Assembly: GCA_964016885.1 (NCBI GenBank)
Contig: OZ024744.1
Span: 131,254,001 to 131,318,000 of the forward strand
DNA: 64,000 nucleotides
Direction: 5' to 3'
Source of the DNA: Eledone cirrhosa
Taxonomy: Eukaryota
A model generated the notes under the pieces. That model did not search any database. It was not told the DNA's origin and was given only the letters and a program-made list of their open reading frames with translations. A program made the translations under genes and the position numbers. Below are positions 2,831 through 63,041 of this stretch, piece after piece. Positions within the stretch are counted from its first letter, which is position 1. Each line of letters opens with the position of its first letter.

Positions 2831-3223
2831 AACCCCAACTTCACTCAACCCCACCTTAACTCAACCCCAACTTAACTTAAGCCCAACTTCACTCAACCCC
2901 AACTTAACTTAACCCCAACTTCACTCAACCCCAACTTAACTCAACCCCAACTTAACTTAACCCCAACTTAACTTAACCCTAACTTAACTTAACCCCAACT
3001 TAACTTAACTTCGACTTAACTTAACCCCAACTTAACTTAACCCCAACTTAACTTAACCCCAACTTAACTTAACCACAAATTAACTTAACCCCAACTTAAA
3101 TTAACCCCAACTTAAATTAACCCCAACTTAACTTAACCCCAACTTAACTTAACCCCAACTTAAATTAACCCCAACTTGACTTAACCCCAAATTAACTTAA
3201 CCCCAACTTAACTTAACCCCAAA
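2831..3223 (-). repeat. Inverted satellite island type A (393 bp)
   Basis: Switch to AACCCCAACTTAACTT at GTGGTT|AACCCC and back at CCCCAAATTCGGGG. Markers CCCCACCTT, AAGCCC, TTCGAC. Confidence 0.95.
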
Positions 3224-4211
3224 TTCGGGGTTAAGTTAAGTTGGGGTTAAATTAAGTTAGGCTTAACTTAAGTTGGGGTTAAGTTAATTTGGGGTTAAGT
3301 TCGGGTTAAGTTAAGTTAGGGTTAAGTTAAGTTGGGGTTGAGTTAAGTTGGGGTTAAGTTAAGTTGGGGTTAAGTTAAGTTGGGGTCAAGTTAAGTTGGG
3401 GTTAAAATTAAGTTGGGGTTAAATCAAGTTGGGGTTAAGTTAAAGTGGGGTTAATTTAGTTGGGGTTAAGTTAAGTTGGGGCTAAGTTAAGTTGGGGCTA
3501 AGTTAAGTTGGGACTAAGTTAAGTTGGGGTTAAGTTAAGTTGGGGTTAAGTTAAGTTGGGGTTAATTTAAGTTGGGATTGAGTTAAGTTGGGGTTAAGTT
3601 AAGTTGGGGTTATATTAAGTTGAGGTTAAGTTAAGTTGGGGTTAAGTTAAGTTGGGGTTCAGTTAAGTTGCGGTTAAGTTAAGTTGGGGTTAAGTTAAGT
3701 TGGGGTTAAGTTAAGTTGGGGTTAAGTTAAGTTGGGGTCAAGTTAAGTTGGGGTTAAGTTAAGTTGGGGTTAAATTAAGTTGGGGTTAATTTAAGTTGGG
3801 GTTAATTTAAGCTGGGGTTAAGTTAAGTTGGGGATAATTTAAGTTGGGGATAAGTTAAGTTGGGGTTAAGTTAAGTTGGGTTTAAGTTAAGTTGGGGTTA
3901 AGTTAAGTTGCGGTTAAGTTAAGTTGGTTAGTTAAGTTGAGTTTAAGTTAAGTTGGGGTTAATTTAAGTTGGGGTTAAGTTACGTTGGGGTTAAGTTAAG
4001 TTGGGGCTAAGTTAAGTTGGGGTTCAGTTAAGTTGGGGTTAAATCAATTTGGGGTTAAGTTGGGGTTAAATTAATTTGGGGTTAAGTTAAGTTGGGGTTA
4101 AGTTAAGTTGGGGTTAAGTTAAGTTGGGGTTAAGTTAAGTTGGGGTTAAGTTAAGTTGGAGTTAAGTTAAGTTTGGGTTGAGTTAAGTTGGGGTTGAGTT
4201 AAATTGGGGTT

Positions 4212-4700
4212 AACTCCAACTTAAGTTAACCCCAACTTAACTTAACCCCAACTTCACTCAACCCCAACTTAACTTAACCCCAACTTCACTCAACCCCAAC
4301 TTAACTCAACCCCAACCTAACTTAACCCCAACTTCACTCAACCCCAACTTATCTTAACCCCAACTTCACTCAACCCCAACTTAACTCAACCCCAACTTAA
4401 CTTAACCCCAACTTAACTTAACCCTAACTTAACTTAACCCCGACTTAACTTAACCTCGACTTAACTTAACCCCAACTTAATTTAACCCCAACTTAACTTA
4501 ACCCCAACTTAACTTAACCACAAATTAACTTAACCCCAACTTCAATTAACTCCAACTTAACTTAACCCCAACTTAACTTAACCCCAACTTAACTTAACCC
4601 CAACTTAACTCACACCCAACTTACCTTACCCCCAACTTAACTTAACCCCAACTTGACTTAACCCCAACTTAACTTAACCCCAACTTAACTTAACCCCAAA
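4212..4700 (-). repeat. Inverted satellite island type B (489 bp)
   Basis: Starts GGGGTT|AACTCCAACTTAAGTTAACCCC and ends CCCCAAATTCGGGG. Markers CCTAAC, TTATCTT, CCTCGAC, CTCACACCC. Confidence 0.95.
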
Positions 4701-6849
4701 TTCGGGGTTAAGTTATGTTGGGGTTAAGTTAACTTAGGCCTAACTTAAGTTGGAGTTAAGTTAAGTTGGGGGTAAGTTAAGTTGGGGGTAAGTTAAGTTG
4801 GGGTTAAGTTAAGTTGGGGTTAAGTTGGGGTTAAGTTAAGTTAGGGTTAAGTTAAGTTGGGGTTGAGTTAAGTTGGGGTTAAGTTAAGTGGTGGTTATGT
4901 TAAGTTGGGGTGAAGTTAACTGGGGTTAATTTAAATTGGTGTTAAGTTAACTTTGTGGTTAAGTTAAGTTGGGGTTAAGTTAAGTTGGGGTTAAGTTAAG
5001 TTGGGGTTGAGTTAAGTTGGGGTTGAGTGAAGTTGGGGTTAAGTTAAGTTGGGGTTAATTTAAGTTGGGGTTAAGTTAAATCGGAGTTAAGTTAAGTTGG
5101 GGTTGAGTTAAGTTGGCGTTAATTTAAGTTGGGGCTAAGTTAAGTTGGGGTTAAGTTAAGTTGAGGTTAAGTTAAGTTGGGGTTGAGTTAAGTTGGGGTT
5201 GAGTTAATTTGGGGTTAAGTTAAGTTGGGGTTAAGTTAAGTTGGGTTTAAGTTAAGTTGGGGTTAAATTAAGTTGGGGTTAAATTAAGTTGGGGTTAAGT
5301 TAAGTTGGGGGTAAGATAAGTTGGGAGCAAGTTAAGTTGGGGTTAAGTTAAGTTGGGGTTAAATTAAGTTGGGGTTAAGTTAAGTTGGGGTTATATTAAG
5401 TTGGGGTTAAGTTAAGTTGGGGTTAAGTTAAGTTGGGGTTCAGTTAAGTTGCGGTTAAGTTAAGTTGGGGTTAAGTTAAGTTGGGGTTAAGTTAAGTTGG
5501 GGTCAAGTTAAGTTGGGGTTATGTTAAGTTGGGGTTTAGTTAAGTTGGTGTTCATTTAAGTTGGGGTTAAGTTAAGTTTGGGTTAAGTTGGGGTTAAATT
5601 AAGTTGGGGTTAAGTTAAGTTGGGGTTAAGTTAAGTTGGGGTTAAGTTAAGTTGGGGTTAAGTTAAGTTGGGGTTAATTTAAGTTGGGGTTAAGTTAAGT
5701 TGCGGGTAATTTAAGTTGGGGTTAAGTTAAGTTGGGGTTAAGTTAAGTTGGGGTTAAGTTAAGTTGGGGTTAAGGTAAGTTGGGGTTAAGTTAAATTGGG
5801 GCTAAGTTAAGTTGGGGCTGAGTTAAGTTGGGGTTAAGTTAAGTTGGGGTTAAGTTAAGTTGGGGTTAAGTTAAGTTGGGGTTAAGTTAAGTTGGGGTTG
5901 AGTTAAGTTGGGGTTAAGTTAAGTAGGGGTAAGTTAAGTTGGGGTTCAGTTAAGTTGGGGTTAAGTTAAGTTGGGGTTAAGTTAAGTTGGGGTTAAGTTA
6001 AGTCGGGGTTAAGTTAAGTCGGGGTTAAGTTAAGTTAGGGTTAAGTTAAGTTGGAGTTAAGTTAAGTTGGGGTTGAGTTAAGTTGGGGTTGAGTTAAATT
6101 GGGGTTGAGTTAAGTTGGGGTTGAGTTAAGTTGGTGTTGAGTTAAGTTGGGGTTAAATTGAGTTGGGGTTAAATTAAGTTGGGGTTAAGTAAATTTGGGG
6201 GTAAGTTAAGTTGGGGGCAAGTTAAGTTGGGGCTAATTTAAGTTGGGGTTAAATTAAGTTGGGGTTACGTTAAGTTGGTGTTAAGTTAAGTTGGGGTTAA
6301 TTTAAGTTGGGGTTAATTAAGTTAGGGTTAAGTTAAGTTGGGGTTAAGTTAAGTTGGGGTTAATTTAAGTTGGGGTTGAGTTAAGTTAGGGTTAAGTTAA
6401 GTTGGGGTTATATTAAGTTGGGGTTAAGTTAAGTTGGGGTTAAGTTAAGTTGGGGTTCAGTTAAGTTGCGGTTAAGTTAAGTTGGGGTTAAGTTAAGTTG
6501 GGGTTAAGTTAAGTTGGGGTTAAGTTAAGTTGGAGTCAAGTTAAGTTGGGGTTAAGTTAAGTTGGGGTTAAGTTAAGTTGGTTAGTTAAGTTGAGTTTAA
6601 GTTAAGTTGGGGTTAATTTAAGTTGGGGTTAAGTTAAGTTGGGGTTAAGTTAAGTTGGGGTTAAGTTAAGTTGGGGTTAAGTTAAGTTGGGGTTCAGTTA
6701 AGTTGGGGTTAAGTCAAGTTGGGGTTAATTTGGGGTTAAATTAATTTGGGGTTAAGTTAAGTTGGGGTTAAGTTAAGTTGGGGTTATGTTAAGTTGGGGT
6801 TAAGTTAAGTTGGGTTTAAGTTAATTCGTGGTTAAGTTAAGTTGTGGTT

Positions 6850-7210
6850 AACCCCAACTTCACTCAACCCCACCTTAACTCAACCCCAACTTAACTTAAC
6901 CCCAACTTCACTCAACCCCAACTTAACTTAACCCCAACTTCACTCAACCCCAACTTAAATCAACCCCAACTTAACATAACCCCAACTTAACTTAACCCTA
7001 ACTTAACTTAACCCCGACTTAACTTAACTTCGAATTAACTTAACCCCAACTTAACTTAACCCCAACTTAACTTAACCCCAACTTAACTTAACCACAAATT
7101 AACTTAACCCCAACTTAACTCACACCCAACTTAACTTACCCCCAACTTAACTTAACCCCAACTTGACTTAACCCCAAATTAACTTAACCCCAACTTAACT
7201 TAACCCCAAA
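6850..7210 (-). repeat. Inverted satellite island type C (361 bp)
   Basis: GTGGTT|AACCCC to CCCCAAATTCGGGG. Markers AACATAAC, TTCGAATT, CTCACACCC. Confidence 0.95.
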
Positions 7211-7803
7211 TTCGGGGTTAAGTTAAGTTGGGGTTAAGTTAAGTTAGGCTTAACTTAAGTTGGGGTTAAGTTAAGTTGGGGGTAAGTTAAGTTCTGGGTA
7301 AGTTAAGTTGGGGTTAAGTTAAGTTGGGGTTAAGTTGGGGTTAAGTTAAGTTAGGGTTAAGTTAAGTTGGGGTTGAGTTAAGTTGGGGTTAAGTTAAGTT
7401 AGGGTTAATTTAAGTTGGGGCTAAGTTAAGTTGGGGCTGAGTTAAGTTGGGGTTAAGTTAAGTTGGGGTTAAGTTAAGTTGGGGATAAGTTAAGTTGGGG
7501 TTAAGTTAAGTTGGGGTTTATTTAAGTTGGGGTTAATTTAAGTTGGGGTTCAGTTAAGTTGGGGTTAAGTTAAGTTGGGGTTAAGTTAAGTTGGGGTTAA
7601 GTTAAGTTGGTGTTAAGTTAAGTTGGGTTTAAGTTAAGTTGGGGTTAAGTTAAGTTGGGGTCAAGTTAAGTTGGGGTTAAGTTAAGTTGGTTAGTTAAGT
7701 TGAGTTTAAGTTAAGTTGGGGTTAATTTATGTTGGGGTTAAGTTAAGTTGGGGTTAAGTTAAGTTGGGGTTAAGTTAAGTTGGGGTTAAGTTAAGTTGGG
7801 GTT

Positions 7804-8004
7804 AACCCCAACTTAACTTAACCCCAACTTCACTCAACCCCAACGTAACTCAACCCCAACTTAACTTAACCCCAACTTCACTCAACCCCAACTTAACTTA
7901 ACCCCAACTTCACTCAACCCCAACTTAAGTCAACCCCAACTTAACTTAACCCCAACTTGACTTAACCCCAACTTAACTTAGCACCAACTTAACTTAAGCC
8001 CAAA
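7804..8004 (-). repeat. Inverted satellite island type D (201 bp)
   Basis: GGGGTT|AACCCC to GCCCAAAGCCGGGG. Markers AACGTAAC, TAGCACC. Confidence 0.95.
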
Positions 8005-8264
8005 GCCGGGGTTAAGTTAAGTTGGCGTTAAGTTAAGTTAGGCTTAACTTAAGTTGGGGTTCAGTTAAGTTGGGGGTAAGTTAAGTTGGGGGTAAGTTAA
8101 GTTGGGGTTCAGTTAAGTTGGGGTTAAGTCAAGTTGGGGTTAAGTTGGGGTTAAATTAAGTTGGGGTTAAGTTAAGTTGGGGTCAAGTTAAGTTAGGGTT
8201 AAGTTAAGTTGGGGTTAAGTTAAGTTGGGGTTAAGTTAATTTGTGGTTAAGTTAAGTTGGGGTT

Positions 8265-8465
8265 AACCCCAACTTAACTTAACCCCAACTTCACTCAAAC
8301 CCAACTTAACTCAACCCCAACTTAACTTAACCCCAGCTTCACTCAACCCCAACTTAACTTAACCCCAACTTCACTCAACCCCAACTTAACTCCACCGCAA
8401 CTTAACTTAACCCCAACTTGACTTAGCCCCAACTTAACTTAACCCCAACTTAACTTAACCCAAAA
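8265..8465 (-). repeat. Inverted satellite island type E (201 bp, diverged copy)
   Basis: GGGGTT|AACCCC to CCCAAAAGTCGGGG. Markers CAAACCC and CCAGCTTC, plus private CTCCACCGC. Confidence 0.95.
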
Positions 8466-11182
8466 GTCGGGGTTAAGTTAAGTTGGGGGTAAGTTAAGTT
8501 GGGATTAAGTTAAGTTGCGGTTAAGTTGGGGTTAAGTTAAGTTGGGGTTAAGTTAAGTCGGGGTAAGTTAAGTCGGGGTTAAGTTAAGTTAGGGTTAAGT
8601 TAAGTTGGGGTTAAGTTAAAGTTGGGGTTGAGTTAAGTTGCGGTTGAGTTAAATTGGGGTTGAGTTAAGTTGGGGTTGAGTGAAGTTGGTGTTGAGTTAA
8701 GTTGGGGTTAAGTTAAGTTGGGGTTAAGTTATGTTGCGGTTAAGTTAAGTTGAGTTTAAGTTAAGTTGGGGTTAACTTAAGTGTGGGTTAAGTTCAGTTG
8801 GGGTTAAGTTAAGTTGGGGTTGAGTTAAGTTGGGGTTGAGTTAAATTGGGGTTGAGTTAAGTTGGGGTTGAGTTAAGTTGGTGTTGAATTAAGTTGGGGT
8901 TAGGTTAAGTTGGGGTTAAGTTAAGTTGCGGTTAAGTTAAGTTGAGGTTAAGTTAAGTTGGGGTTAACTTAAGTGTGGATTAAGTTAAGTTGGGGTTAAG
9001 TTAAGTTGGGGTTAAGTTAAGTTGGTGTTAAGTTAAGTTGGGGCTGAGTTAAGTTGGGGCTGAGTTAAGTTGGGGCTGAGTTAAGTTGGGGTTCAGTTAA
9101 GTTGGGGTTGAGTTAAGTTGCGGTTAAGTTAAGTTGGGGTTAAGTTAAGTTGGGGTTATGTTAAGTTGGGGTTAAGGTAGGTTGGGGTTAAGTTAATTTG
9201 GGGTTGAGTTAAGTTGGGGTTGAGTTAAATTGGGGTTGAGTTAAGTTGGGGTTGAGTTAAGTTGGTGTTGAGTTAAGTTGGGGTTAAGTTAAGTTGGGGT
9301 TAAGTTAAGTTGCGATTAAGTTAAGTTGAGGTTAAGTTAAGTTGGGGTTAACTTAAGTGTGGGTTAAGTTAAGTTAAGGTTAAGTTAAGTTGGGGTTAAG
9401 TTAAGTTGGGGTTAAGTTAAGTTGGGGTTAAGTTAAGTTGGTGTTAAGTTAAGTTGGGGCTGAGTTAAGTTGGGGCTGAGTTAAGTTGGGGCTGAGTTAA
9501 GTTGGGGTTCAGTTAAGTTGGGGTTGAGTTAAGTTGCGGTTAAGTTAAGTTGGGGTTAAGTTAAGTTGGGGTTATGTTAAGTTGGGGTTTAGTTAAGTTG
9601 GGGTTCATTTAAGTTGGGGTTAAGTTAAGTTTAGGTTAAGTTGGGGTTAAATTAATTTGGGGTTAAGTTAAGTTGGGGTTAAGTTAAGTTGGGGTTAATT
9701 TAAGTTGGGGTTAATTTAAGTTGGGGTTAAGTTAAGTTGCGGGTAATTTAAGTTGGGGTTAAGTTAAGTTGGGGTTAAGTTAAGTTGGGGTTAAGTTAAG
9801 TTGGGGTTAAGTTAAGTTTGGGTTAAGTTAAGTTGGGGCTAATTTAAGTTGGGGCTGAGTTAAGTTGGGGTTAAGTTAAGTTGGGGTTAAGTTAATTTGG
9901 GGTTAAGTTGGGGTTAAGTTAAGTTGCGGTTTATTTAAGTTGGGGTTAAGTTAAGTTGGGGTTCAGTTAAGTTGGGGTTCAGTTAAGTTGGGGTTAAGTT
10001 AAGTTGGGGTTAAGTTAAGTTGGTTAGTTAAGTTGAGGTTAAGTTAAGTTGGGGTTAAGTTAAGTTGGGGTTAAGTTAAGTTGGGGTTAATTTAAGTTGG
10101 GGCTAAGTTAAGTTGGGGCTAAGTTAAGTTGGAGCTAAGTTAAGTTGGGTTTAAGTTAAGGTGGGGTTAAGTTAAGTTGAGGTTAAGTTAAGTTGGGGTT
10201 AAGTTAAGTTGGTGTTAAGTTAAGTTGGGGCTGAGTTAAGTTGGGGCTGAGTTAAGTTGGGGCTGAGTTAAGTTGGGGTTGAGTTAAGTTGGGGTTGAGT
10301 TACGTTGCGGTTAAGTTAAGTTGGGGTTAAGTTAAGTTGGGGTTATGTTAAGTTGGGGTTAAGTTAAGTTGGGGTTGAGTTAAGTTGGGGTTGAGTTAAA
10401 TTGGGGTTGAGTTAAGTTGGGGTTGAGTTAAGTTGGTGTTGAGTTAAGTTGGGATTAAGTTAAGTTGGGGTTAAGTTAAGTTGCGGTTAAGTTAAGGTGA
10501 GGTTAAGTTAAGTTGGGGTTAACTTAAGTTGGGGTTAAGTTAAGTTGGGGTTAAGTTAAGTTGGGGTTAAGTTAAGTTGGTGTTAAGTTAAGTTGGGGCT
10601 GAGTTAAGTTGGGGCTGAGTTAAGTTGGGGCTGAGTTAAGTTGGGGTTCAGTTAAGTTGGGGTTGAGTTAAGTTGCGGTTAATTTAAGTTGGGGTTAAGT
10701 TAAGTTGGAGCTCATTTAAGTTGGGGTTAAGTTAAGTTGGGGTTAAGTTGGGGTTAAATTAATTTGGGGTTAAGTTAAGTTGGGGTTAAGTTAAGTTGGG
10801 GTTAAGTTAAGTTGGGGTTAATTTAAGTTGGGGTTAATTTAAGTTGCGGGTAATTTAAGTTGGGGTTAAGTTAAGTTGGGGTTAAGTTAAGTTGGGGTTA
10901 AGTTAAGTTGGGGTTAAGTTAAGTTGGGTTTAAGTTAAGTTGGGGCTGAGTTAAGTTGGGGTTAATTTAAGTTGGGGTTAAGTTAAGTTGGGGTTAAGTT
11001 AAGTTGGGGTTTATTTAAGTTGGGGTTAAGTTAAGTTGGGGTTCAGTTAAGTTGGGGTTCAGTTAAGTTGGGGTTAAGTTAAGTTGGGGTTAAGATGGGG
11101 TTAAATTAAGTTGGGGTTAAGTTAAGTTGGGGTTAAGTTAAGTTGGGGTTAAGTTAAGTTGGGGTTAAGTTAAGTTGGGGTT

Positions 11183-11326
11183 AACCCCAACTTAACTTAA
11201 CCGCAACTTCACTCAACCCCAACGTAACTCAGCCCCAACTTAACTTAACCCCAACTTCACACAACCCCAACTTCCAACTTGACTTAACCCCAACTTAACT
11301 TAGCCCCAACTTAACTTAAGCCCAAA
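11183..11326 (-). repeat. Inverted satellite island type F (short form, 144 bp)
   Basis: GGGGTT|AACCCC to GCCCAAAGTCGGGG. Markers ACCGCAAC, CTCAGCCCC, CTTCCAAC. Confidence 0.95.
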
Positions 11327-14300
11327 GTCGGGGTTAAGTTAAGTTGGCGTTAAGTTAAGTTAGGCTTAACTTAAGTTGGGGTTCAGTTAAGTTGGGGGTA
11401 AGTTAAGTTGGGGGTAAGTTAAGTTGGGGTTAAGTTAAGTTGCGGTTAAGTTGGGGTTAAGTTAAGTTAGGGTTAAGTTAAGTTGGGGTTGAGTTAAGTT
11501 GGGGTTAATTAAGTGGTGGTTATGTTAAGTTGGGGTTAAGTTAAGTTGGGGTTAATTTAAATTGGGGTTAAGTTAACTTTGTGGTTAAGTTAAGTTGGGG
11601 TTAAGTTAAGTTGGGGTAAAGTTGGGGTTGAGTTAAGTTGGGGTTGAGTGAAGTTGGGGTTAAGTTAAGTTGGGGTTAAGTTAAGTTGGGGTTAAGATAA
11701 GTCGGGGTTAAATTAAGTTGTGGTTGAGTTAAGTTGGGGTTAATTTAAGTTGGGGCTAAGTTAATTTGTGGTTAAGTTAAGTTGGGGTTAAGTTAAGTTG
11801 GGGTTAAGTTAAGTCGGGGTAAGTTAAGTCGGGGTTAAGTTAAGTTAGGGTTAAGTTAAGTTGGGGTTAAGTTAAGTTGGGGTTGAGTTAAGTTGGGGTT
11901 GAGTTAAATTGGGGTTGAGTTAAGTTGGTGTTGAGTTAAGTTGGTGTTGAGTTAAGTTGGGGTTAAGTTAAGTTGGGGTTAAGTTAAGTTGCGGTTAAGT
12001 TAAGTTGAGGTTAAGTTAAGTTGGGGTTAACTTAAGTGTGGGTTAAGTTAAGTTGGGGTTAAGTTAAGTTGGGGTTAAGTTAAGTTGGTGTTAAGTTAAA
12101 TTGGGGTTGAGTTAAGTTGGGGCTGAGTTAAGTTGGGGCTGAGTTAAGTTGTGGTTCAGTTAAGTTGGGGTTGAGTTAAGTTGCGGTTAAGTTAAGTTGG
12201 GGTTAAGTTAAGTTGGGGTTATGTTAAGTTGGGGTTAAGGTAGGTTGGGGTTAAGTTAAGTTGGGGTTGAGTTAAGTTGGGGTTGAGTTAAATTGGGGTT
12301 GAGTTAAGTTGGGGTTGAGTTAAGTTGGTGTTGAGTTAAGTTGGGGTTAAGTTAAGTTGGGGTTAAGTTAAGTTGCGGTTAAGTTAAGTTGGGGTTAAGT
12401 TAAGTTGGGGTTAAGTTAAGTTGGGGTTAAGTTAAGTTGGGGTTAAGTTAAGTTGGTGTTAAGTTAAGTTGGGGCTGAGTTAAGTTGGGGCTGAGTTAAG
12501 TTGGGGCTGAGTTAAGTTGGGGTTCAGTTAAGTTGGGGTTAAGTTAAGTTGGGGTTATGTTAAGTTGGGGTTTAGTTAAGTTGGGGTTCATTTAAGTTGG
12601 GGTTAAGTTAAGTTTAGGTTAAGTTGGGGTTAAATTAATTTGGGGTTAAGTTAAGTTGGGGTTAAGTTAAGTTGGGGTTAATTTAAGTTGGGGTTAATTT
12701 AAGTTGGGGTTAAGTTAAGTTGCGGGTAATTTAAGTTGGGGTTAAGTTAAGTTGGGGTTAAGTTAAGTTGGGGTTAAGTTAAGTTGGGGTTAAGTTAAGT
12801 TTGGGTTAAGTTAAGTTGGGGCTAATTTAAGTTGGGGCTGAGTTAAGTTGGGGTTAAGTTAAGTTGGGGTTAAGTTAATTTGGGGTTAAGTTGGGGTTAA
12901 GTTAAGTTGGGGTTTATTTAAGTTGGGGTTAAGTTAAGTTGGGGTTCAGTTAAGTTGGGGTTCAGTTAAGTTGGGGTTAAGTTAAGTTGGGGTTAAGTTA
13001 AGTTGGTTAGTTAAGTTGAGGTTAAGTTAAGTTGGGGTTAAGTTAAGTTGGGGTTAAGTTAAGTTGGGGTTAATTTAAGTTAGGGTTAAGTTAAGTTGGG
13101 GTTCAGTTAAGTTGGGGTTAAGTCAAGTTGGGGTTAAGTTGGGGTTAAATTAAGTTGGGGCTAAGTTAAGTTGGGGCTAAGTTAAGTTGGGGCTAAGTTA
13201 AGTTGGGGTTCAGTTAAGTTGGGGTTAAGTTAAGTTTGGGTTAAGTTGGGGTTAAATTAAGTTGGGGTTAAGTTAAGTTGGGGTTTAGTTAAGTTGGGGT
13301 TAATTTAAGTTGGGGTTAATTTAAGTTGCGGTTAAGTTAAGTTGGGGTTAAGTTAAGTGGTGGTTATGTTAAGTTGGGGTTAAGTTAAGTTGGGGTTAAT
13401 TTAAATTGGGGTTAAGTTAACTTTGTGGTTAAGTTAAGTTGGGGTTAAGTTAAGTTGGGGTTAAGTTAAGTTGGGGTTGCGTTAAGTCGGGGTTGAGTGA
13501 AGTTGGGGTTAAGTTAAGTTGGGGTTAATTTAAGTTGGGGTTAAGTTAAGTCGGGCTTAAGTTAAGTTGGGGTTAAGTTAATTTGGGGTTAAGTTAAGTT
13601 GGGGTTAAGTTAAGTTGGGGTTGAGTTAAGTTGGGGTTGAGTTAATTTAGGGTTAAGTTAAGTTGGGGTTAAGTTAAGTTGGGTTTAAGTTAAGTTGGGG
13701 TTAAATTAAGTTGGGGTTAAATTAAGTTGGGGTTAAGTTAAGTTGGGGGTAAGTTAAGTTGGGGGCAAGTTAAGTTGGGGTTAAGTTAAGTTGGGGTTAA
13801 ATTAAGTTGGGGTTAAGTTTAGTTGGTGTTAAGTTAAGTTGGGGTTTATTTAAGTTGGGGTTAATTAAGTTGGGGCTGAGTTAAGTTGGGGCTGAATTAA
13901 GTTGGGGTTAAGTTAAGTTGGGGTTGAGTTAAGTTGGGGTTAAGTTAAGTTGGGGTTAAGTTAAGTTGGGGTTCAGTTAAGTTGGGGTTAAGTTGGGGTT
14001 AAATTAATTTGGGGTTAAGTTAAGTTGGGGTTTAGTTTAGTTGGGGTTAAATTAAGTTGGGGTTAATTTAAGTTGGGGTTAAGTTAAGTTGCGGGTAATT
14101 TAAGTTGGGGTTAAGTTAAGTTGGGGTTAAGTTAAGTTGGGGTTAAGTTAAGTTGGGGTTAAGTTAAGTTGGGGGTAAGTTAAGTTGGGGGTAAGTTAAG
14201 TTGGGGTTAAGTTAAGTTGGGGTTAAGTTAAGTTAGGGTTAAGTTAAGTTGGGGTTGAGTTAAGTTGGGGTTAAGTTAAGTTGGGGTTATGTTAAGTTGG

Positions 14301-14540
14301 GGTTAAGTTAAGTTGGTTCGTTAAGTTGAGTTTAAGTTAAGTGGGGTTAATTTAAGTTGGGGTTAAGTTAAGTTGGGGTTAAGTTAAGTTGGGGTTAAGT
14401 TAAGTTGGGGTTAAGTTAAGTTGGGGTTCAGTTAAGTTGGGGTTAAGTCAAGTTGGGGTTAAGTTAAGTTGGGGTTATGTTAAGTTGGGGTTAAGTTAAG
14501 TTGGGGTTAAGTTAATTTGTGGTTAAGTTAAGTTGTGGTT

Positions 14541-14933
14541 AACCCCAACTTCACTCAACCCCACCTTAACTCAACCCCAACTTAACTTAAGCCCAACTTC
14601 ACTCAACCCCAACTTAACTTAACCCCAACTTCACTCAACCCCAACTTAACTCAACCCCAACTTAACTTAACCCCAACTTAACTTAACCCTAACTTAACTT
14701 AACCCCAACTTAACTTAACTTCGACTTAACTTAACCCCAACTTAACTTAACCCCAACTTAACTTAACCCCAACTTAACTTAACCACAAATTAACTTAACC
14801 ACAACTTAAATTAACCCCAACTTAAATTAACCCCAACTTAACTTAACCCCAACTTAACTTAACCCCAACTTAAATTAACCCCAACTTGACTTAACCCCAA
14901 ATTAACTTAACCCCAACTTAACTTAACCCCAAA
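14541..14933 (-). repeat. Inverted satellite island type A
   Basis: Copy of 2831-3223 with the same junctions. Confidence 0.95.
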
Positions 14934-15921
14934 TTCGGGGTTAAGTTAAGTTGGGGTTAAATTAAGTTAGGCTTAACTTAAGTTGGGGTTAAGTTAATTT
15001 GGGGTTAAGTTCGGGTTAAGATAAGTTAGGGTTAAGTTAAGTTGGGGTTGAGTTAAGTTGGGGTTAAGTTAAGTTGGGGTTAAGTTAAGTTGGGGTCAAG
15101 TTAAGTTGGGGTTAAAATTAAGTTGGGGTTAAATCAAGTTGGGGTTAAGTTAAAGTGGGGTTAATTTAGTTGGGGTTAAGTTAAGTTGGGGCTAAGTTAA
15201 GTTGGGGCTAAGTTAAGTTGGGACTAAGTTAAGTTGGGGTTAAGTTAAGTTGGGGTTAAGTTAAGTTGGGGTTAATTTAAGTTGGGATTGAGTTAAGTTG
15301 GGGTTAAGTTAAGTTGGGGTTATATTAAGTTGAGGTTAAGTTAAGTTGGGGTTAAGTTAAGTTGGGGTTCAGTTAAGTTGCGGTTAAGTTAAGTTGGGGT
15401 TAAGTTAAGTTGGGGTTAAGTTAAGTTGGGGTTAAGTTAAGTTGGGGTCAAGTTAAGTTGGGGTTAAGTTAAGTTGGGGTTAAATTAAGTTGGGGTTAAT
15501 TTAAGTTGGGGTTAATTTAAGCTGGGGTTAAGTTAAGTTGGGGATAATTTAAGTTGGGGATAAGTTAAGTTGGGGTTAAGTTAAGTTGGGTTTAAGTTAA
15601 GTTGGGGTTAAGTTAAGTTGCGGTTAAGTTAAGTTGGTTAGTTAAGTTGAGTTTAAGTTAAGTTGGGGTTAATTTAAGTTGGGGTTAAGTTACGTTGGGG
15701 TTAAGTTAAGTTGGGGCTAAGTTAAGTTGGGGTTCAGTTAAGTTGGGGTTAAATCAATTTGGGGTTAAGTTGGGGTTAAATTAATTTGGGGTTAAGTTAA
15801 GTTGGGGTTAAGTTAAGTTGGGGTTAAGTTAAGTTGGGGTTAAGTTAAGTTGGGGTTAAGTTAAGTTGGAGTTAAGTTAAGTTTGGGTTGAGTTAAGTTG
15901 GGGTTGAGTTAAATTGGGGTT

Positions 15922-43119: not shown

Positions 43120-43295
43120 AACCCCAACTTAACTTAACCGCAACTTCACTCAACCCCAACGTAACTCAGCCCCAACTTAACTTAACCCCAACTTCAATCA
43201 ACCCCAACTTAACTTAACCCCAACTTCACTCAACCCCAACTTCCAACTTGACTTAACCCCAACTTAACTTAGCCCCAACTTAACTTAAGCCCAAA
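43120..43295 (-). repeat. Inverted satellite island type F
   Basis: Copy of 35998-36173. Confidence 0.95.
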
Positions 43296-50715: not shown

Positions 50716-50891
50716 AACCCCAACTTAACTTAACCGCAACTTCACTCAACCCCAACGTAACTCAGCCCCAACTTAACTTAACCCCAACTTCAATCAACCC
50801 CAACTTAACTTAACCCCAACTTCACTCAACCCCAACTTCCAACTTGACTTAACCCCAACTTAACTTAGCCCCAACTTAACTTAAGCCCAAA
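50716..50891 (-). repeat. Inverted satellite island type F
   Basis: Copy of 43120-43295 (+7,596). Confidence 0.95.
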
Positions 50892-53800: not shown

Positions 53801-54239
53801 AAGTTAAGTTGGGGTTAAGTTAAGTTGGGGGTAAGTTAAGTTGGGGGTAAGTTAAGTTGGGGTTAAGTTAAGTTGGGGTTAAGTTAAGTTAGGGTTAAGT
53901 CAAGTTGGGGTTGAGTTAAGTTGGGGTTAAGTTAAGTTGGGGTTATGTTAAGTTGGGGTTAAGTTAAGTTGGTTCGTTAAGTTGAGTTTAAGTTAAGTGG
54001 GGTTAATTTAAGTTGGGGTTAAGTTAAGTTGGGGTTAAGTTAAGTTGGGGTTAAGTTAAGTTGGGGTTAAGTTAAGTTGGGGTTCAGTTAAGTTGGGGTT
54101 CAGTGAAGTTGGGGTTAAGTTGGGGTTAAATTAATTTGGGGTTAAGTTAAGTTGGGGTTAAGTTAAGTTGGGGTTATGTTAAGTTGGGGTTAAGTTAAGT
54201 TGGGGTTAAGTTAATTTGTGGTTAAGTTAAGTTGTGGTT

Positions 54240-54632
54240 AACCCCAACTTCACTCAACCCCACCTTAACTCAACCCCAACTTAACTTAAGCCCAACTTCA
54301 CTCAACCCCAACTTAACTTAACCCCAACTTCACTCAACCCCAACTTAACTCAACCCCAACTTAACTTAACCCCAACTTAACTTAACCCTAACTTAACTTA
54401 ACCCCAACTTAACTTAACTTCGACTTAACTTAACCCCAACTTAACTTAACCCCAACTTAACTTAACCCCAACTTAACTTAACCACAAATTAACTTAACCC
54501 CAACTTAAATTAACCCCAACTTAAATTAACCCCAACTTAACTTAACCCCAACTTAACTTAACCCCAACTTAAATTAACCCCAACTTGACTTAACCCCAAA
54601 TTAACTTAACCCCAACTTAACTTAACCCCAAA
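54240..54632 (-). repeat. Inverted satellite island type A
   Basis: Same markers and junctions as 2831-3223. Confidence 0.95.
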
Positions 54633-55620
54633 TTCGGGGTTAAGTTAAGTTGGGGTTAAATTAAGTTAGGCTTAACTTAAGTTGGGGTTAAGTTAATTTG
54701 GGGTTAAGTTGGGGTTAAGTTAAGTTAGGGTTAAGTTAAGTTGGGGTTGAGTTAAGTTGGGGTTAAGTTAAGTTGGGGTTAAGTTAAGTTGGGGTCAAGT
54801 TAAGTTGGGGTTAAAATTAAGTTAGGGTTAAATCAAGTTGGGGTTAAGTTAAAGTGGGGTTAATTTAGTTGGGGTTAAGTTAAGTTGGGGCTAAGTTAAG
54901 TTGGGGCTAAGTTAAGTTGGGACTAAGTTAAGTTGGGGTTAAGTTAAGTTGGGGTTAAGTTAAGTTGGGGTTAATTTAAGTTGGGATTGAGTTAAGTTGG
55001 GGTTAAGTTAAGTTGGGGTTATATTAAGTTGAGGTTAAGTTAAGTTGGGGTTAAGTTAAGTTGGGGTTCAGTTAAGTTGCGGTTAAGTTAAGTTGGGGTT
55101 AAGTTAAGTTGGGGTTAAGTTAAGTTGGGGTTAAGTTAAGTTGGGGTCAAGTTAAGTTGGGGTTAAGTTAAGTTGGGGTTAAATTAAGTTGGGGTTAATT
55201 TAAGTTGGGGTTAATTTAAGCTGGGGTTAAGTTAAGTTGGGGATAATTTAAGTTGGGGATAAGTTAAGTTGGGGTTAAGTTAAGTTGGGTTTAAGTTAAG
55301 TTGGGGTTAAGTTAAGTTGCGGTTAAGTTAAGTTGGTTAGTTAAGTTGAGTTTAAGTTAAGTTGGGGTTAATTTAAGTTGGGGTTAAGTTACGTTGGGGT
55401 TAAGTTAAGTTGGGGCTAAGTTAAGTTGGGGTTCAGTTAAGTTGGGGTTAAATCAATTTGGGGTTAAGTTGGGGTTAAATTAATTTGGGGTTAAGTTAAG
55501 TTGGGGTTAAGTTAAGTTGGGGTTAAGTTAAGTTGGGGTTAAGTTAAGTTGGGGTTAAGTTAAGTTGGAGTTAAGTTAAGTTTGGGTTGAGTTAAGTTGG
55601 GGTTGAGTTAAATTGGGGTT

Positions 55621-56109
55621 AACTCCAACTTAAGTTAACCCCAACTTAACTTAACCCCAACTTCACTCAACCCCAACTTAACTTAACCCCAACTTCACTC
55701 AACCCCAACTTAACTCAACCCCAACCTAACTTAACCCCAACTTCACTCAACCCCAACTTATCTTAACCCCAACTTCACTCAACCCCAACTTAACTCAACC
55801 CCAACTTAACTTAACCCCAACTTAACTTAACCCTAACTTAACTTAACCCCGACTTAACTTAACCTCGACTTAACTTAACCCCAACTTAATTTAACCCCAA
55901 CTTAACTTAACCCCAACTTAACTTAACCACAAATTAACTTAACCCGAACTTCAATTAACCCCAACTTAACTTAACCCCAACTTAACTTAACCCCAACTTA
56001 ACTTAACCCCAACTTAACTCACACCCAACTTACCTTACCCCCAATTTAACTTAACCCCAACTTGACTTAACCCCAACTTAACTTAACCCCAACTTAACTT
56101 AACCCCAAA
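55621..56109 (-). repeat. Inverted satellite island type B
   Basis: Same markers and junctions as 4212-4700. Confidence 0.95.
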
Positions 56110-59100
56110 TTCGGGGTTAAGTTATGTTGGGGTTAAGTTAAGTTAGGCCTAACTTAAGTTGGAGTTAAGTTAAGTTGGGGGTAAGTTAAGTTGGGGGTAA
56201 GTTAAGTTAAGTTGGGGTTAAGTTGGGGTTAAGTTAAGTTGGGGTTAAGTTAAGTTGGGGTTAAGTTAAGTTGGGGTTAATTTAAGTTGGGGTTAAGTTA
56301 AGTTGCGGGTAATTTAAGTTGGGGTTAAGTTAAGTTGGGGTTAAGTTAAGTTGGGGTTAAGTTAAGTTGGGGTTAAGGTAAGTTGGGGTTAAGTTAAATT
56401 GGGGCTAAGTTAAGTTGGGGCTGAGTTAAGTTGGGGTTAAGTTAAGTTGGGGTTAAGTTAAGTTGGGGTTAAGTTAAGTTGGGGTTAAGTTAAGTTGGCG
56501 TTGAGTTAAGTTGGGGTTAAGTTAAGTAGGGGTAAGTTAAGTTGGGGTTCAGTTAAGTTGGGGTTAAGTTAAGTTGGGGTTAAGTTAAGTTGGGGTTAAG
56601 TTAAGTCGGGGTTAAGTTAAGTTAGGGTTAAGTTAAGTTGGAGTTAAGTTAAGTTGGGGTTGAGTTAAGTTGGGGTTGAGTTAAATTGGGGTTGAGTTAA
56701 GTTGGGGTTGAGTTAAGTTGGTGTTGAGTTAAGTTGGGGTTAAATTGAGTTGGGGTTAAATTAAGTTGGGGTTAAGTAAATTTGGGGGTAAGTTAAGTTG
56801 GGGGCAAGTTAAGTTGGGGCTAATTTAAGTTGGGGTTAAATTAAGTTGGGGTTACGTTAAGTTGGTGTTAAGTTAAGTTGGGGTTAATTTAAGTTGGGGT
56901 TAATTAAGTTAGGGTTAAGTTAAGTTGGGGTTAAGTTAATTTGGGGTTAATTTAAGTTGGGGTTGAGTTAAGTTAGGGTTAAGTTAAGTTGGGGTTATAT
57001 TAAGTTGGGGTTAAGTTAAGTTGGGGTTGAGTTAAGTTAGGGTTAAGTTAAGTTGGGGTTATATTAAGTTGGGGTTAAGTTATGTTGGGGTTAAGTTAAG
57101 TTAGGCCTAACTTAAGTTGGAGTTAAGTTAAGTTGGGGGTAAGTTAAGTTGGGGGTAAGTTAAGTTGGGGTTAAGTTAAGTTGGGGTTAAGTTGGGGTTA
57201 AGTTAAGTTAGGGTTAAGTTAAGTTGGGGTTGAGTTAAGTTGGGGTTAAGTTAAGTGGTGGTTATGTTAAGTTGGGGTGAAGTTAACTGGGGTTAATTTA
57301 AATTGGTGTTAAGTTAACTTTGTGGTTAAGTTAAGTTGGGGTTAAGTTAAGTTGGGGTTAAGTTAAGTTGGGGTTGAGTTAAGTTGGGGTTGAGTGAAGT
57401 TGGGGTTAAGTTAAGTTGGGGTTAATTTAAGTTGGGGTTAAGTTAAATCGGAGTTAAGTTAAGTTGGGGTTGAGTTAAGTTGGCGTTAATTTAAGTTGGG
57501 GCTAAGTTAAGTTGGGGTTAAGTTAAGTTGAGGTTAAGTTAAGTTGGGGTTGAGTTAAGTTGGGGTTGAGTTAATTTGGGGTTAAGTTAAGTTGGGGTTA
57601 AGTTAAGTTGGGTTTAAGTTAAGTTGGGGTTAAATTAAGTTGGGGTTAAATTAAGTTGGGGTTAAGTTAAGTTGGGGGTAAGATAAGTTGGGAGCAAGTT
57701 AAGTTGGGGTTAAGTTAAGTTGGGGTTAAATTAAGTTGGGGTTAAGTTAAGTTGGGGTTATATTAAGTTGGGGTTAAGTTAAGTTGGGGTTAAGTTAAGT
57801 TGGGGTTCAGTTAAGTTGCGGTTAAGTTAAGTTGGGGTTAAGTTAAGTTGGGGTTAAGTTAAGTTGGGGTCAAGTTAAGTTGGGGTTAAGTTAAGTTTGG
57901 GTTAAGTTAAGTTGGGGCTAATTTAAGTTGGGGCTGAGTTAAGTTGGGGTTAAGTTAAGTTGGGGTTAAGTTAATTTGGGGTTAAGTTGGGGTTAAGTTA
58001 AGTTGGGGTTTATTTAAATTGGGGTTAAGTTAAGTTGGGGTTCAGTTAAGTTGGGGTTCAGTTAAGTTGGGGTTAAGTTAAGTTGGGGTTAAGTTAAGTT
58101 GGTTAGTTAAGTTGAGGTTAAGTTAAGTTGGGGTTAAGTTAAGTTGGGGTTAAGTTAAGTTGGGGTTAATTTAAGTTAGGGTTAAGTTAAGTTGGGGTTC
58201 AGTTAAGTTGGGGTTAAGTCAAGTTGGGGTTAAGTTGGGGTTAAATTAAGTTGGGGTTAAGTTAAGTTGGGGTCAAGTTAAGTTGGGGTTAAGTTAAGTT
58301 GGGGTTAAGTTAAGTTGGGGTTAAGTTAAGTTGGGGTTCAGTTAAGTTGGGGTTAATTCAAGTTGGGGTTAAGTTGGGGTTAAATTAAGTTGGGGCTAAG
58401 TTAAGTTGGGGCTAAGTTAAGTTGGGGCTAAGTTAAGTTGGGGTTCAGTTAAGTTGGGGTTAAGTTAAGTTTGGGTTAAGTTGGGGTTAAATTAAGTTGG
58501 GGTTAAGTTAAGTTGGGGTTTAGTTAAGTTGGGGTTAATTTAAGTTGGGGTTAATTTAAGTTGCGGTTAAGTTAAGTTGGGGTTAAGTTAAGTGGTGGTT
58601 ATGTTAAGTTGGGGTTAAGTTAAGTTGGGGTTAATTTAAATTGGGGTTAAGTTAACTTTGTGGTTAAGTTAAGTTGGGGTTAAGTTAAGTTGGGGTTAAG
58701 TGAAGTTGGGGTTGCGTTAAGTCGGGGTTGAGTGAAGTTGGGGTTAAGTTAAGTTGGGGTTAATTTAAGTTGGGGTTAAGTTAAGTCGGGCTTAAGTTAA
58801 GTTGGGGTTAAGTTAATTTGGGGTTAAGTTAAGTTGGGGTTAAGTTAAGTTGGGGTTGAGTTAAGTTGGGGTTGAGTTAATTTAGGGTTAAGTTAAGTTG
58901 GGGTTAAGTTAAGTTGGGTTTAAGTTAAGTTGGGGTTAAATTAAGTTGGGGTTAAATTAAGTTGGGGTTAAGTTAAGTTGGGGGTAAGTTAAGTTGGGGT
59001 TCAGTTAAGTTGCGGTTAAGTTAAGTTGGGGTCAAGTTAAGTTGGGGTTATGTTAAGTTGGGGTTTAGTTAAGTTGGTGTTCATTTAAGTTGGGGTTAAG

Positions 59101-59149
59101 TTAAGTTTGGGTTAAGTTGGGGTTAAATTAAGTTGGGGTTAAGTTAAGT

Positions 59150-61850
59150 TGGGGTTAAGTTAAGTTGGGGTTAAGTTAAGTTGGGGTTAAGTTAAGTTGG
59201 GGTTAATTTAAGTTGGGGTTAAGTTAAGTTGCGGGTAATTTAAGTTGGGGTTAAGTTAAGTTGGGGTTAAGTTAAGTTGGGGTTAAGTTAAGTTGGGGTT
59301 AAGGTAAGTTGGGGTTAAGTTAAATTGGGGCTAAGTTAAGTTGGGGCTGAGTTAAGTTGGGGTTAAGTTAAGTTGGGGTTAAGTTAAGTTGGGGTTAAGT
59401 TAAGTTGGGGTTAAGTTAAGTTGGGGTTGAGTTAAGTTGGGGTTAAGTTAAGTAGGGGTAAGTTAAGTTGGGGTTCAGTTAAGTTGGGGTTAAGTTAAGT
59501 TGGGGTTAAGTTAAGTTGGGGTTAAGTTAAGTCGGGGTTAAGTTAAGTCGGGGTTAAGTTAAGTTAGGGTTAAGTTAAGTTGGAGTTAAGTTAAGTTGGG
59601 GTTGAGTTAAGTTGGGGTTGAGTTAAATTGGGGTTGAGTTAAGTTGGGGTTGAGTTAAGTTGGTGTTGAGTTAAGTTGGGGTTAAATTGAGTTGGGGTTA
59701 AATTAAGTTGGGGTTAAGTAAATTTGGGGGTAAGTTAAGTTGGGGGCAAGTTAAGTTGGGGCTAATTTAAGTTGGGGTTAAATTAAGTTGGGGTTACGTT
59801 AAGTTGGTGTTAAGTTAAGTTGGGGTTAATTTAAGTTGGGGTTAATTAAGTTAGGGTTAAGTTAAGTTGGGGTTAAGTTAAGTTGGGGTTAATTTAAGTT
59901 GGGGTTGAGTTAAGTTAGGGTTAAGTTAAGTTGGGGTTATATTAAGTTGGGGTTAAGTTAAGTTGGGGTTGAGTTAAGTTAGGGTTAAGTTAAGTTGGGG
60001 TTATATTAAGTTGGGGTTAAGTTATGTTGGGGTTAAGTTAAGTTAGGCCTAACTTAAGTTGGAGTTAAGTTAAGTTGGGGGTAAGTTAAGTTGGGGGTAA
60101 GTTAAGTTGGGGTTAAGTTAAGTTGGGGTTAAGTTGGGGTTAAGTTAAGTTAGGGTTAAGTTAAGTTGGGGTTGAGTTAAGTTAGGGTTAAGTTAAGTGG
60201 TGGTTATGTTAAGTTGGGGTGAAGTTAACTGGGGTTAATTTAAATTGGTGTTAAGTTAACTTTGTGGTTAAGTTAAGTTGGGGTTAAGTTAAGTTGGGGT
60301 TAAGTTAAGTTGGGGTTGAGTTAAGTTGGGGTTGAGTGAAGTTGGGGTTAAGTTAAGTTGGGGTTAATTTAAGTTGGGGTTAAGTTAAATCGGAGTTAAG
60401 TTAAGTTGGGGTTGAGTTAAGTTGGCGTTAATTTAAGTTGGGGCTAAGTTAAGTTGGGGTTAAGTTAAGTTGAGGTTAAGTTAAGTTGGGGTTGAGTTAA
60501 GTTGGGGTTGAGTTAATTTGGGGTTAAGTTAAGTTGGGGTTAAGTTAAGTTGGGTTTAAGTTAAGTTGGGGTTAAATTAAGTTGGGGTTAAATTAAGTTG
60601 GGGTTAAGTTAAGTTGGGGGTAAGATAAGTTGGGAGCAAGTTAAGTTGGGGTTAAGTTAAGTTGGGGTTCAGTTAAGTTGCGGTTAAGTTAAGTTGGGGT
60701 TAAGTTAAGTTGGGGTTAAGTTAAGTTGGGGTCAAGTTAAGTTGGGGTTAAGTTAAGTTTGGGTTAAGTTAAGTTGGGGCTAATTTAAGTTGGGGCTGAG
60801 TTAAGTTGGGGTTAAGTTAAGTTGGGGTTAAGTTAATTTGGGGTTAAGTTGGGGTTAAGTTAAGTTGGGGTTTATTTAAATTGGGGTTAAGTTAAGTTGG
60901 GGTTCAGTTAAGTTGGGGTTCAGTTAAGTTGGGGTTAAGTTAAGTTGGGGTTAAGTTAAGTTGGTTAGTTAAGTTGAGGTTAAGTTAAGTTGGGGTTAAG
61001 TTAAGTTGGGGTTAAGTTAAGTTGGGGTTAATTTAAGTTAGGGTTAAGTTAAGTTGGGGTTCAGTTAAGTTGGGGTTAAGTCAAGTTGGGGTTAAGTTGG
61101 GGTTAAATTAAGTTGGGGTTAAGTTAAGTTGGGGTCAAGTTAAGTTGGGGTTAAGTTAAGTTGGGGTTAAGTTAAGTTGGGGTTCAGTTAAGTTGGGGTT
61201 AATTCAAGTTGGGGTTAAGTTGGGGTTAAATTAAGTTGGGGCTAAGTTAAGTTGGGGCTAAGTTAAGTTGGGGCTAAGTTAAGTTGGGGTTCAGTTAAGT
61301 TGGGGTTAAGTTAAGTTTGGGTTAAGTTGGGGTTAAATTAAGTTGGGGTTAAGTTAAGTTGGGGTTTAGTTAAGTTGGGGTTAATTTAAGTTGGGGTTAA
61401 TTTAAGTTGCGGTTAAGTTAAGTTGGGGTTAAGTTAAGTGGTGGTTATGTTAAGTTGGGGTTAAGTTAAGTTGGGGTTAATTTAAATTGGGGTTAAGTTA
61501 ACTTTGTGGTTAAGTTAAGTTGGGGTTAAGTTAAGTTGGGGTTAAGTTAAGTTGGGGTTGCGTTAAGTCGGGGTTGAGTGAAGTTGGGGTTAAGTTAAGT
61601 TGGGGTTAATTTAAGTTGGGGTTAAGTTAAGTCGGGCTTAAGTTAAGTTGGGGTTAAGTTAATTTGGGGTTAAGTTAAGTTGGGGTTAAGTTAAGTTGGG
61701 GTTGAGTTAAGTTGGGGTTGAGTTAATTTAGGGTTAAGTTAAGTTGGGGTTAAGTTAAGTTGGGTTTAAGTTAAGTTGGGGTTAAATTAAGTTGGGGTTA
61801 AATTAAGTTGGGGTTAAGTTAAGTTGGGGGTAAGTTAAGTTGGGGGCAAG
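59150..61850 (+). repeat. Near-tandem duplicate of about 56,220-58,990 (offset about 2.86-2.94 kb), containing no island
   Basis: Markers AGTAGGGG (56525/59451), AGGCCT (57103/60045) and TATTTAAATT (58011/60873). Confidence 0.85.
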
Positions 61851-62648
61851 TTAAGTTGGGGTTAAGTTAAGTTGGGGTTAAATTAAGTTGGGGTTAAGTT
61901 TAGTTGGTGTTAAGTTAAGTTGGGGTTTATTTAAGTTGGGGTTAATTAAGTTGGGGCTGAGTTAAGTTGGGGCTGAATTAAGTTGGGGTTAAGTTAAGTT
62001 GGGGTTGAGTTAAGTTGGGGTTAAGTTAAGTTGGGGTTAAGTTAAGTTGGGGTTCAGTTAAGTTGGGGTTAAGTTGGGGTTAAATTAATTTGGGGTTAAG
62101 TTAAGTTGGGGTTTAGTTTAGTTGGGGTTAAATTAAGTTGGGGTTAATTTAAGTTGGGGTTAAGTTAAGTTGCGGGTAATTTAAGTTGGGGTTAAGTTAA
62201 GTTGGGGTTAAGTTAAGTTGGGGTTAAGTTAAGTTGGGGGTAAGTTAAGTTGGGGGTAAGTTAAGTTGGGGTTAAGTTAAGTTGGGGTTAAGTTAAGTTA
62301 GGGTTAAGTTAAGTTGGGGTTGAGTTAAGTTGGGGTTAAGTTAAGTTGGGGTTATGTTAAGTTGGGGTTAAGTTAAGTTGGTTCGTTAAGTTGAGTTTAA
62401 GTTAAGTGGGGTTAATTTAAGTTGGGGTTAAGTTAAGTTGGGGTTAAGTTAAGTTGGGGTTAAGTTAAGTTGGGGTTAAGTTAAGTTGGGGTTCAGTTAA
62501 GTTGGGGTTAAGTCAAGTTGGGGTTAAGTTGGGGTTAAATTAATTTGGGGTTAAGTTAAGTTGGGGTTAAGTTAAGTTGGGGTTATGTTAAGTTGGGGTT
62601 AAGTTAAGTTGGGGTTAAGTTAATTTGTGGTTAAGTTAAGTTGTGGTT

Positions 62649-63041
62649 AACCCCAACTTCACTCAACCCCACCTTAACTCAACCCCAACTTAACTTAAGC
62701 CCAACTTCACTCAACCCCAACTTAACTTAACCCCAACTTCAGTCAACCCCAACTTAACTCAACCCCAACTTAACTTAACCCCAACTTAACTTAACCCTAA
62801 CTTAACTTAACCCCAACTTAACTTAACTTCGACTTAACTTAACCCCAACTTAACTTAACCCCAACTTAACTTAACCCCAACTTAACTTAACCACAAATTA
62901 ACTTAACCCCAACTTAAATTAACCCCAACTTGAATTAACCCCAACTTAACTTAACCCCAACTTAACTTAACCCCAACTTAAATTAACCCCAACTTGACTT
63001 AACCCCAAATTAACTTAACCCCAACTTAACTTAACCCCAAA
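62649..63041 (-). repeat. Inverted satellite island type A
   Basis: Same junctions as 2831-3223, with private variants TTCAGTC and TTGAATT. Confidence 0.95.

Follow-up and report, generated by a model that had tools for sequence, protein, structure and literature searches.

One small inversion is the likely source of the inverted islands in a 16-bp satellite of Eledone cirrhosa

Amplified and conserved inversion junctions in satellite DNA have already been described in Tribolium. In the available passages of the two studies, the macro-dyads of the Tribolium madens satellites TmSat1 and TmSat2 (PMC13081366) and the Tribolium freemani satellite TfSat01 (PMC12581902) have conserved, amplified inversion sites for which a function was proposed, and conserved junctions of this kind have been taken as a sign of function. 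Abundant strand switches are also known from human HSat3 and beta satellite. The part of one study that describes them gives more than 200 strand-switch breakpoints in HSat3B5 on chromosome 9 and in beta satellite (10.1101/2021.07.12.452052). In the corresponding part of another, the number of switches scales with array length (r = 0.90), their spread is random, and the authors read them as by-products of expansion (10.64898/2026.07.22.740206). A third relevant system is the four-point short-range template switch of Loytynoja and Goldman, in which, in the sections available, two switches that involve little or no homology insert a reverse-complement copy of nearby sequence and create a new inverted repeat (PMC5453318).

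The locus considered here is a window of 64,000 nucleotides, by which we mean the whole stretch of DNA analysed, from the 3.0-Gb genome of Eledone cirrhosa (OZ024744.1, contig C28, 131,254,001-131,318,000, forward strand). The entire window (1..64000) is a single satellite of period 16, with the monomer GGGG TTAAG TTAAG TT on the forward strand in about 4040 copies that diverge from consensus by ~5%. Read as TTAAG-TTAAG-TTGGGG, the monomer is one that we take to be like degenerate telomere-type repeats. Its run of four G in each 16 bp gives a strong strand skew, which the islands described below reverse. The window lies within a main array of 8.38 Mb (C28:126,967,457-135,348,130), interrupted by two 200-N gaps and by a stretch interleaved with an AT-rich satellite. 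This array sits 1-10 Mb from the end of the 136.5-Mb contig, with other satellites around it. Unrelated tandem satellites with periods of roughly 40-80 bp, judged by eye, occur at C28 122.0, 124.0, 126.68 and 135.5 Mb, making this end of the contig a satellite-rich domain.

A two-strand periodic Viterbi scan recovered exactly 25 reverse-oriented segments in the window, the number given by the original prediction, and their sequence types follow the proposed order ABCDEF-ABCD-ABCD-EEFEFFEF-AB-A. Their lengths, counted from the AAC of the opening up to the last base ahead of the closing GGGG, are 147-492 bp; the earlier values of 144-489 bp and 16n+9 describe the same islands cut three bases earlier. 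All lie on the minus strand. Type A comprises islands 1 (2831..3226, 396 bp), 7 (14541..14936), 11 (21412..21807), 23 (54240..54635) and 25 (62649..63044), and type B islands 2 (4212..4703, 492 bp), 8 (15922..16413), 12 (22681..23172) and 24 (55621..56112). Type C is represented by islands 3 (6850..7213, 364 bp), 9 (18560..18923) and 13 (25287..25650), and type D by islands 4 (7804..8007, 204 bp), 10 (19514..19717) and 14 (26241..26444). Islands 5 (8265..8468, 204 bp), 15 (29560..29763), 16 (33080..33283), 18 (40202..40405) and 21 (47830..48033) belong to type E. Type F, which has a 9-bp deletion, includes a short form, island 6 (11183..11329, 147 bp), together with islands 17 (35998..36176, 179 bp), 19 (43120..43298), 20 (45415..45593) and 22 (50716..50894). 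Copies of the same type and equal length differ at 0-5 bases. The gaps between islands range from 264 to 6543 bp; the proposed figure of about one island per 2.5 kb thus holds as a mean and fails as a period.

The order of the islands in the window reflects recent duplications. Positions 1..19840 contain a forward duplication at an offset of 11,710 bp, in which 1-8130, with the first islands A-D, recurs at 99.89% identity. A second (29757..43650, forward, offset 7,122 bp, 99.85%) carries islands E and F, and a third (42619..47345, forward, offset 2,295 bp, 99.67%) carries one F island. Across the window, offsets of 11,710, 7,122, 14,750, 7,628, 6,727 and 2,295 bp were found at 99.6-99.9% identity, corresponding to units of 2.3-14.75 kb with one to six islands each.

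Every island in the window opens at GGTT|AAC, as predicted, 21 with GGTTAACC and four, all of type B, with GGTTAACT. The expected closing pattern CCCAA-A(T/G)(T/C)C-GGGG is exact in 24 of the 25, and departs by one substitution in island 5. Both internal features noted earlier are confined to islands: all 72 occurrences of TTCACTC in the window fall inside them, and CTTGACTT is found 25 times, each island having one copy that lies three monomers ahead of its close. Of the HpaI site GTTAAC, suggested as an experimental handle, 75 copies occur in the window, and only 29 of them lie at islands. Chance is excluded for the junction patterns, since reversed-pattern controls gave 0 matches against 185, 392 and 849 for the real patterns.

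The islands are real. A 68-bp contig from sequencing run X1, at depth 1464, covers the type-F closing junction with 33 identical bases on either side and spans the close of island 17, and a 53-bp X1 contig, with only 23 bases on one side, crosses the type-E junction at depth 110. The assembly holds 237 exact type-F and 29 type-E junctions, which corresponds to a read depth of about 6 and 4 per copy; run X1 may itself be the source of the assembly, and the type-E raw-read depth was set aside, as ordinary satellite reads align there as two split pieces. The junction sequences are thus present in the reads of X1; three RAD-seq runs from other samples gave only 2 reads each at the type-F junction. 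Of three sampled words, one sequencing run contained 2, which is no evidence by itself. Sequencing or assembly artefact, through fold-back chimeric reads or mis-joined repeats, could be entertained given the scaffold gaps at 131.987 and 132.794 Mb, the noisy sequence beside one of them and the lack of clear confirmation in raw reads from other samples. Counter to this, a chimera would be an exact mirror of its flank and would turn up at random sites, while the islands carry nested, heritable variants, and the read-derived contigs cross two junction types. We regard an artefact as extremely improbable.

At C28:132,793,543-132,795,077, a 200-N gap precedes 1.3 kb of noisy C/A-rich sequence, likely the low-quality end of a read, that passes gradually into satellite. 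The contig that lies between the 131.987- and 132.794-Mb gaps may be misplaced or misoriented.

Across the genome, 849 sites match the degenerate closing pattern; for the opening pattern there are 844 matches on the forward strand and 779 on the reverse, and each control gives 0. The opening pattern is near-palindromic, and its sites are counted on both strands. Among the matches listed, all junctions are on C28 and none on the contigs before it. Sub-types cluster locally, as with type E, whose 29 exact junctions all fall within 130.94-131.30 Mb of C28. Again among the matches listed, a small reversed array with junctions occupies C28:124.60-124.69 Mb, no match falls between 124.69 and 130.247 Mb, and matches are dense from 130.247 Mb onwards. 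The first 3.28 Mb of the main array, a single block that makes up 39% of it, has neither junction pattern among these matches, and ~140 kb sampled from it had no switches of any kind. Islands are also missing from a tract of 154.6 kb that starts at 133.355 Mb, one of 51 kb that starts at 131.819 Mb and one of 47.8 kb ahead of the array's right end. A true repeating unit of 'forward tract plus island', as first suggested, is not supported, given the 3.28-Mb block without junction matches and the recent duplication units that carry one to six islands.

Strand switches were called in 1.71 Mb of C28 sequence, picked partly for island richness. After removal of two of the 579 calls, which bounded one false 12-bp segment, and with one indel-bearing closing variant counted as canonical, 577 real switches remain, of which 576 match the opening or the closing junction or are point variants of one of them. 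The one independent switch is at C28:131,964,571. We recovered 254 islands, of which 239 were complete with full flanks; the left side of the other 15 was another satellite or a gap, and these were dropped. Islands of the C28 family measure 103-487 bp, make up about 3-17% of local sequence and are spaced about 0.2 to 33 kb apart.

To judge origin we counted shared markers rather than building a formal tree, because the alignment of 16-bp repeats is ambiguous. A GAGTGAA-type marker is present in 237 of the 239 islands compared with 0.8% of forward-tract monomers, and a CTTGA(C/T) marker in 225. A two-substitution marker lies in the right flank, at most five monomers from the close, of 210 islands, with examples in each of the eight sub-regions between 124.6 and 135.0 Mb. 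At 129.0 and 129.8 Mb the same flank motif stands alone, with no island next to it, and there represents either the pre-inversion state or a loss. Left flanks are much more varied than right flanks among the 239 islands, so that the opening junction may have been re-formed repeatedly. Taken together, the recurrence of the same two junctions and of the flank marker supports a single ancestral inversion that was amplified with the array, and the local clustering supports its subsequent divergence into sub-types, both as originally proposed. It is thus likely, from the sequence evidence, that about 850 islands on one chromosome descend from one small inversion. Alternatively, the same two positions could be a hotspot for many independent inversions. 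TTAA-centred switches did recur independently, at C28:131,964,571 and on contig C18, but those events use the other TTAA of the monomer and the closing junction is not palindromic. Moreover, islands megabases apart have internal and flank variants in common, including the derived flank markers of the 210 islands. A hotspot is very hard to reconcile with these patterns, and we give it almost no weight.

As in Tribolium, orientation changes inside an uninterrupted array, foreign sequence is absent from the switch points, and junction types are few and conserved (thousands of near-identical copies there, two junctions for nearly all switches here). The inverted sub-arrays of Tribolium, as far as its published passages describe them, are several to tens of kb long, roughly symmetric and found on many chromosomes; those of C28 are 0.1-0.5 kb within ~2.5 kb and, among the matches listed, are confined to one contig. 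The monomer differs as well, the two junctions travel here as a pair, and the C28 array has neither a monomer containing an inverted repeat, of the TmSat2 type, nor a fixed unit of spacing. The human arrays resemble this one in having hundreds of switches in a short-period satellite with random-like spread (here a coefficient of variation, CV, of 1.02). In their available passages the switches are not attributed to a single pair of junctions or to microhomology, both of which are seen here. Judged against those passages, the islands work like the human passenger switches, and their junction conservation is that of the Tribolium macro-dyads, with unlike size and symmetry. The 16-bp monomer was found in no paper in our literature search, and sub-kilobase paired-junction islands were not reported in the literature searched, which covers subscription papers thinly.

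Island density and spacing resemble those of ordinary point-variant markers. The median spacing is 2343 bp, with a CV of 1.02 and 3.1 islands per non-empty 10-kb bin. For comparison we took every multi-substitution monomer marker that reaches 100-500 copies in the same 120 bins, 29 in all; these two-substitution markers have median spacings of 765-2987 bp, CVs of 0.99-2.47 and 2.2-5.6 copies per bin. The island CV is the fourth lowest of the 30 and equals the value for random placement, in a sample that included island-rich regions on purpose. In a toy neutral model that runs from 10 kb to 8.4 Mb, with duplications and deletions drawn log-uniformly, events of 1-30 kb gave 5-95% ranges of 1.8-4.2 kb for spacing, 0.93-1.4 for CV, 1.9-3.6 for copies per bin and 0.4-5.8 Mb for the largest empty stretch. 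The observed values fall inside the simulated ranges in two settings, for markers of similar copy number. Neutral simulation, named in advance as a check, therefore does reproduce island spacing. It does so in two of eight settings, short events being too clumped and long events too even, which demonstrates sufficiency and nothing more.

We consider it probable that the islands are inverted segments from one old inversion, which ordinary multi-kilobase tandem duplications would have multiplied as neutral passengers. Counting against this reading are the predicted folds of the junctions: as single strands, 96-base junction windows fold at -21 to -43 kcal/mol, compared with -4 to -8 in forward tracts, and unwound DNA could therefore form hairpins. 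Such folds, the presence of about 850 copies across more than 5 Mb, and the similarity to the proposal made in the available passages on Tribolium macro-dyads (PMC13081366, PMC12581902) would be expected if regularly placed islands extruded hairpins or cruciforms, or flipped the G-rich strand, and were selected for centromeric or heterochromatic chromatin. Arguing against such a functional architecture, spacing is exponential-like, and islands are missing from 39% of the array in one block (among the matches listed). Stem-breaking substitutions beside both junctions are fixed, uncompensated, in large sub-lineages (GGAG in 47; GCCC types), and the closing arm is at most 3 bp in 155 of 239 islands. 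Islands are likewise absent from the sampled array on contig C2 (none in six 10-kb samples), and C18 has a different, rare island. The architecture proposed at the outset is thus not supported, and selection for it seems improbable. We are equally doubtful of the narrower idea that the island-rich layer at 130.25-131.8 Mb is a working sub-domain, in which hairpins would recruit centromeric or heterochromatic proteins and so drive expansion, and islands would invert blocks of a kilobase to half a megabase.

The original prediction set the islands against the instability of long spacer-less inverted repeats. The premise that they are long and perfect repeats of that kind does not hold. Perfect arms at the opening are 3-43 bp and average 12.1 bp in 47 distinct contexts, where random pairs of tracts give 11.5, and at the close they average 6.5 over 53 contexts against 6.8 by chance; arm lengths that match chance give no sign of polishing or purging. 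Monomers being ~5% from consensus, the arms are about 90% alike. In yeast, identities of 94% and 86% lower inverted-repeat rearrangements about 15- and 58-fold (PMC10164571), and the general principle is treated in the part of a further paper that concerns it (PMC7999016). With perfect arms of at most 43 bp the stability paradox is removed, and the islands would persist as weakly fragile structures.

The phases of the two junctions constrain how the founding island arose. The opening is centred on the first TTAA of the monomer, a 4-bp palindrome common to both strands, whereas the close always falls at the same phase, which is not palindromic and has an overlap of about one base. They lie at monomer positions 4-7 and at positions 14-15 to 11-12, respectively, and are not reciprocal, so the event was not a clean cut-and-flip and a clean in-place inversion was rejected. 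We suggest instead two template switches during replication or repair: the first, at the TTAA microhomology, would have moved copying to the opposite strand, and the second would have returned it about 10-30 monomers later. The copies have since diverged by point changes and by whole-monomer gains and losses. When islands were aligned at the monomer level to 29 long forward tracts, three of six types beat all 12 shuffles, one of them barely; some of these tracts adjoin islands, so that flank matches are not independent. No exact mirror of the immediate flanks was found in the eight window islands examined, and spacer-less C-to-G junctions centred on either TTAA had 0 exact matches.

A younger, independent and more readable case is provided by C18, where a second pure 16-mer array with its own variant set lies at 10.11-10.20 Mb and a cluster of GTTAAC-type monomers recurs every 0.5-3 kb. 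A search for switches at the second TTAA returned four sites, C28:131,964,571 and three on C18. The C18 island, 144 bp long and present in three copies, has both ends at the second TTAA. Read as its reverse complement, it shows the same variants as the flank to its left, with four variant monomers in two of the copies and two in the third. In forward form, its marker occurs three times in 90 kb, always beside the island. Calls of 21-36 bp in reverse orientation on C18, like the 12-bp call on C28, were variant clusters and were dropped. The C18 island indicates that fold-back copying at TTAA, followed by duplication, is a process that happens in this satellite, and fold-back template switching is its likely mechanism. 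As the donor of the C28 family is unplaced, local template switching is argued there from the C18 analogue, and it would account for the birth of the C28 islands. Set beside the available description of the four-point switch, the C18 island fits directly, as a copy of nearby sequence, and the C28 microhomology, with the 4-bp TTAA where islands open and about 1 bp where they close, is comparable. That description concerns short fragments in single-copy DNA with repeats filtered out; here the product was amplified hundreds of times.

A different birth could be imagined for the same passenger history, in which the island body is a relic of the ancestral end of the array. A C-rich 16-mer tract continuous with an older, related 32-bp satellite would have folded back at TTAA and founded the G-rich array; the ancestral end would then have been copied into this array by one later switch, now seen as the closing junction. 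Consistent with this, the right end of the array (135.348 Mb) consists of an opening junction, an island body and 25 kb of the 32-bp satellite, with no closing junction; the satellite has similar ACTTA and ACCCCA blocks in island orientation, and the island body aligns poorly with present forward tracts. Against it, the mirror end at 124.599 Mb joins a local island type to a point 5 kb inside the 32-bp satellite (97.8% identity to the 135.35-Mb copy), which implies that joins of this sort may arise secondarily. At C28:132.5-132.8 Mb, similarly, islands have lost their opening half to an AT-rich satellite, always from a fixed point, and the right-flank motif without an island at two sites also argues against a relic. 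We find this origin unlikely, if somewhat less so than selection for function, and prefer birth by local template switching.

The 32-bp (26+6) satellite is diverged, with ACTTA- and ACCCCA-like blocks, and appears related to the 16-mer. It adjoins both array ends, at C28:135.348-135.373 and 124.57-124.60 Mb.

Islands may also have taken part in later rearrangements. Just right of the window, at C28:131,323,651-131,326,136, is a single-copy inversion bounded by island junctions. It begins with an opening junction and the start of a type-B island, continues as reversed forward tracts that enclose a whole flipped island, and finishes with a reversed closing junction and an island end that enters a forward tract at a shared marker. 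This is the pattern expected of exchange between an island and a forward tract, which we infer from sequence. A second case is a block of 560 kb or more in reversed orientation, which terminates at 133,355,365 with a single reversed closing junction, two to three monomers into a local island type. Gaps obscure the left end of this block; the predicted opening junction was not found there, and the candidates for that end are one scaffold gap and one independent junction. From these two cases, islands would occasionally serve as ready-made inverted homology for later inversions.

Why do these patterns matter? The array is an internal control, in which one junction pair, in about 850 copies, behaves like a neighbouring point mutation, and the island-free half beside the island-rich part adds to this control. 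Identical junctions, on the evidence of this array, need no selection. With a palindromic TTAA in the monomer and the C18 island, it offers a readable example of inversion birth, and it suggests that small inversions seed larger ones. Were chromatin mapping to tie function to the island-rich layer, the array would become an unusually clean natural test of the dyad-symmetry centromere idea.

Other occurrences of the satellite vary in their setting. At C28:132.0-132.79 Mb the AT-rich satellite alternates with 2-6 kb stretches of the 16-mer, and one block shows its own fold-back. On C2 (209.196-209.76 Mb) the 16-mer forms a ~244-bp tract within a ~520-bp composite repeat that extends over at least 560 kb and includes a 276-bp non-satellite part. 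Single 225-bp tracts of the 16-mer at C28:126.008 and 124.693 Mb have flanks related to those of the C2 repeat. Given these tracts on C2 and C28, the satellite may have originated from an internal repeat of a dispersed element.
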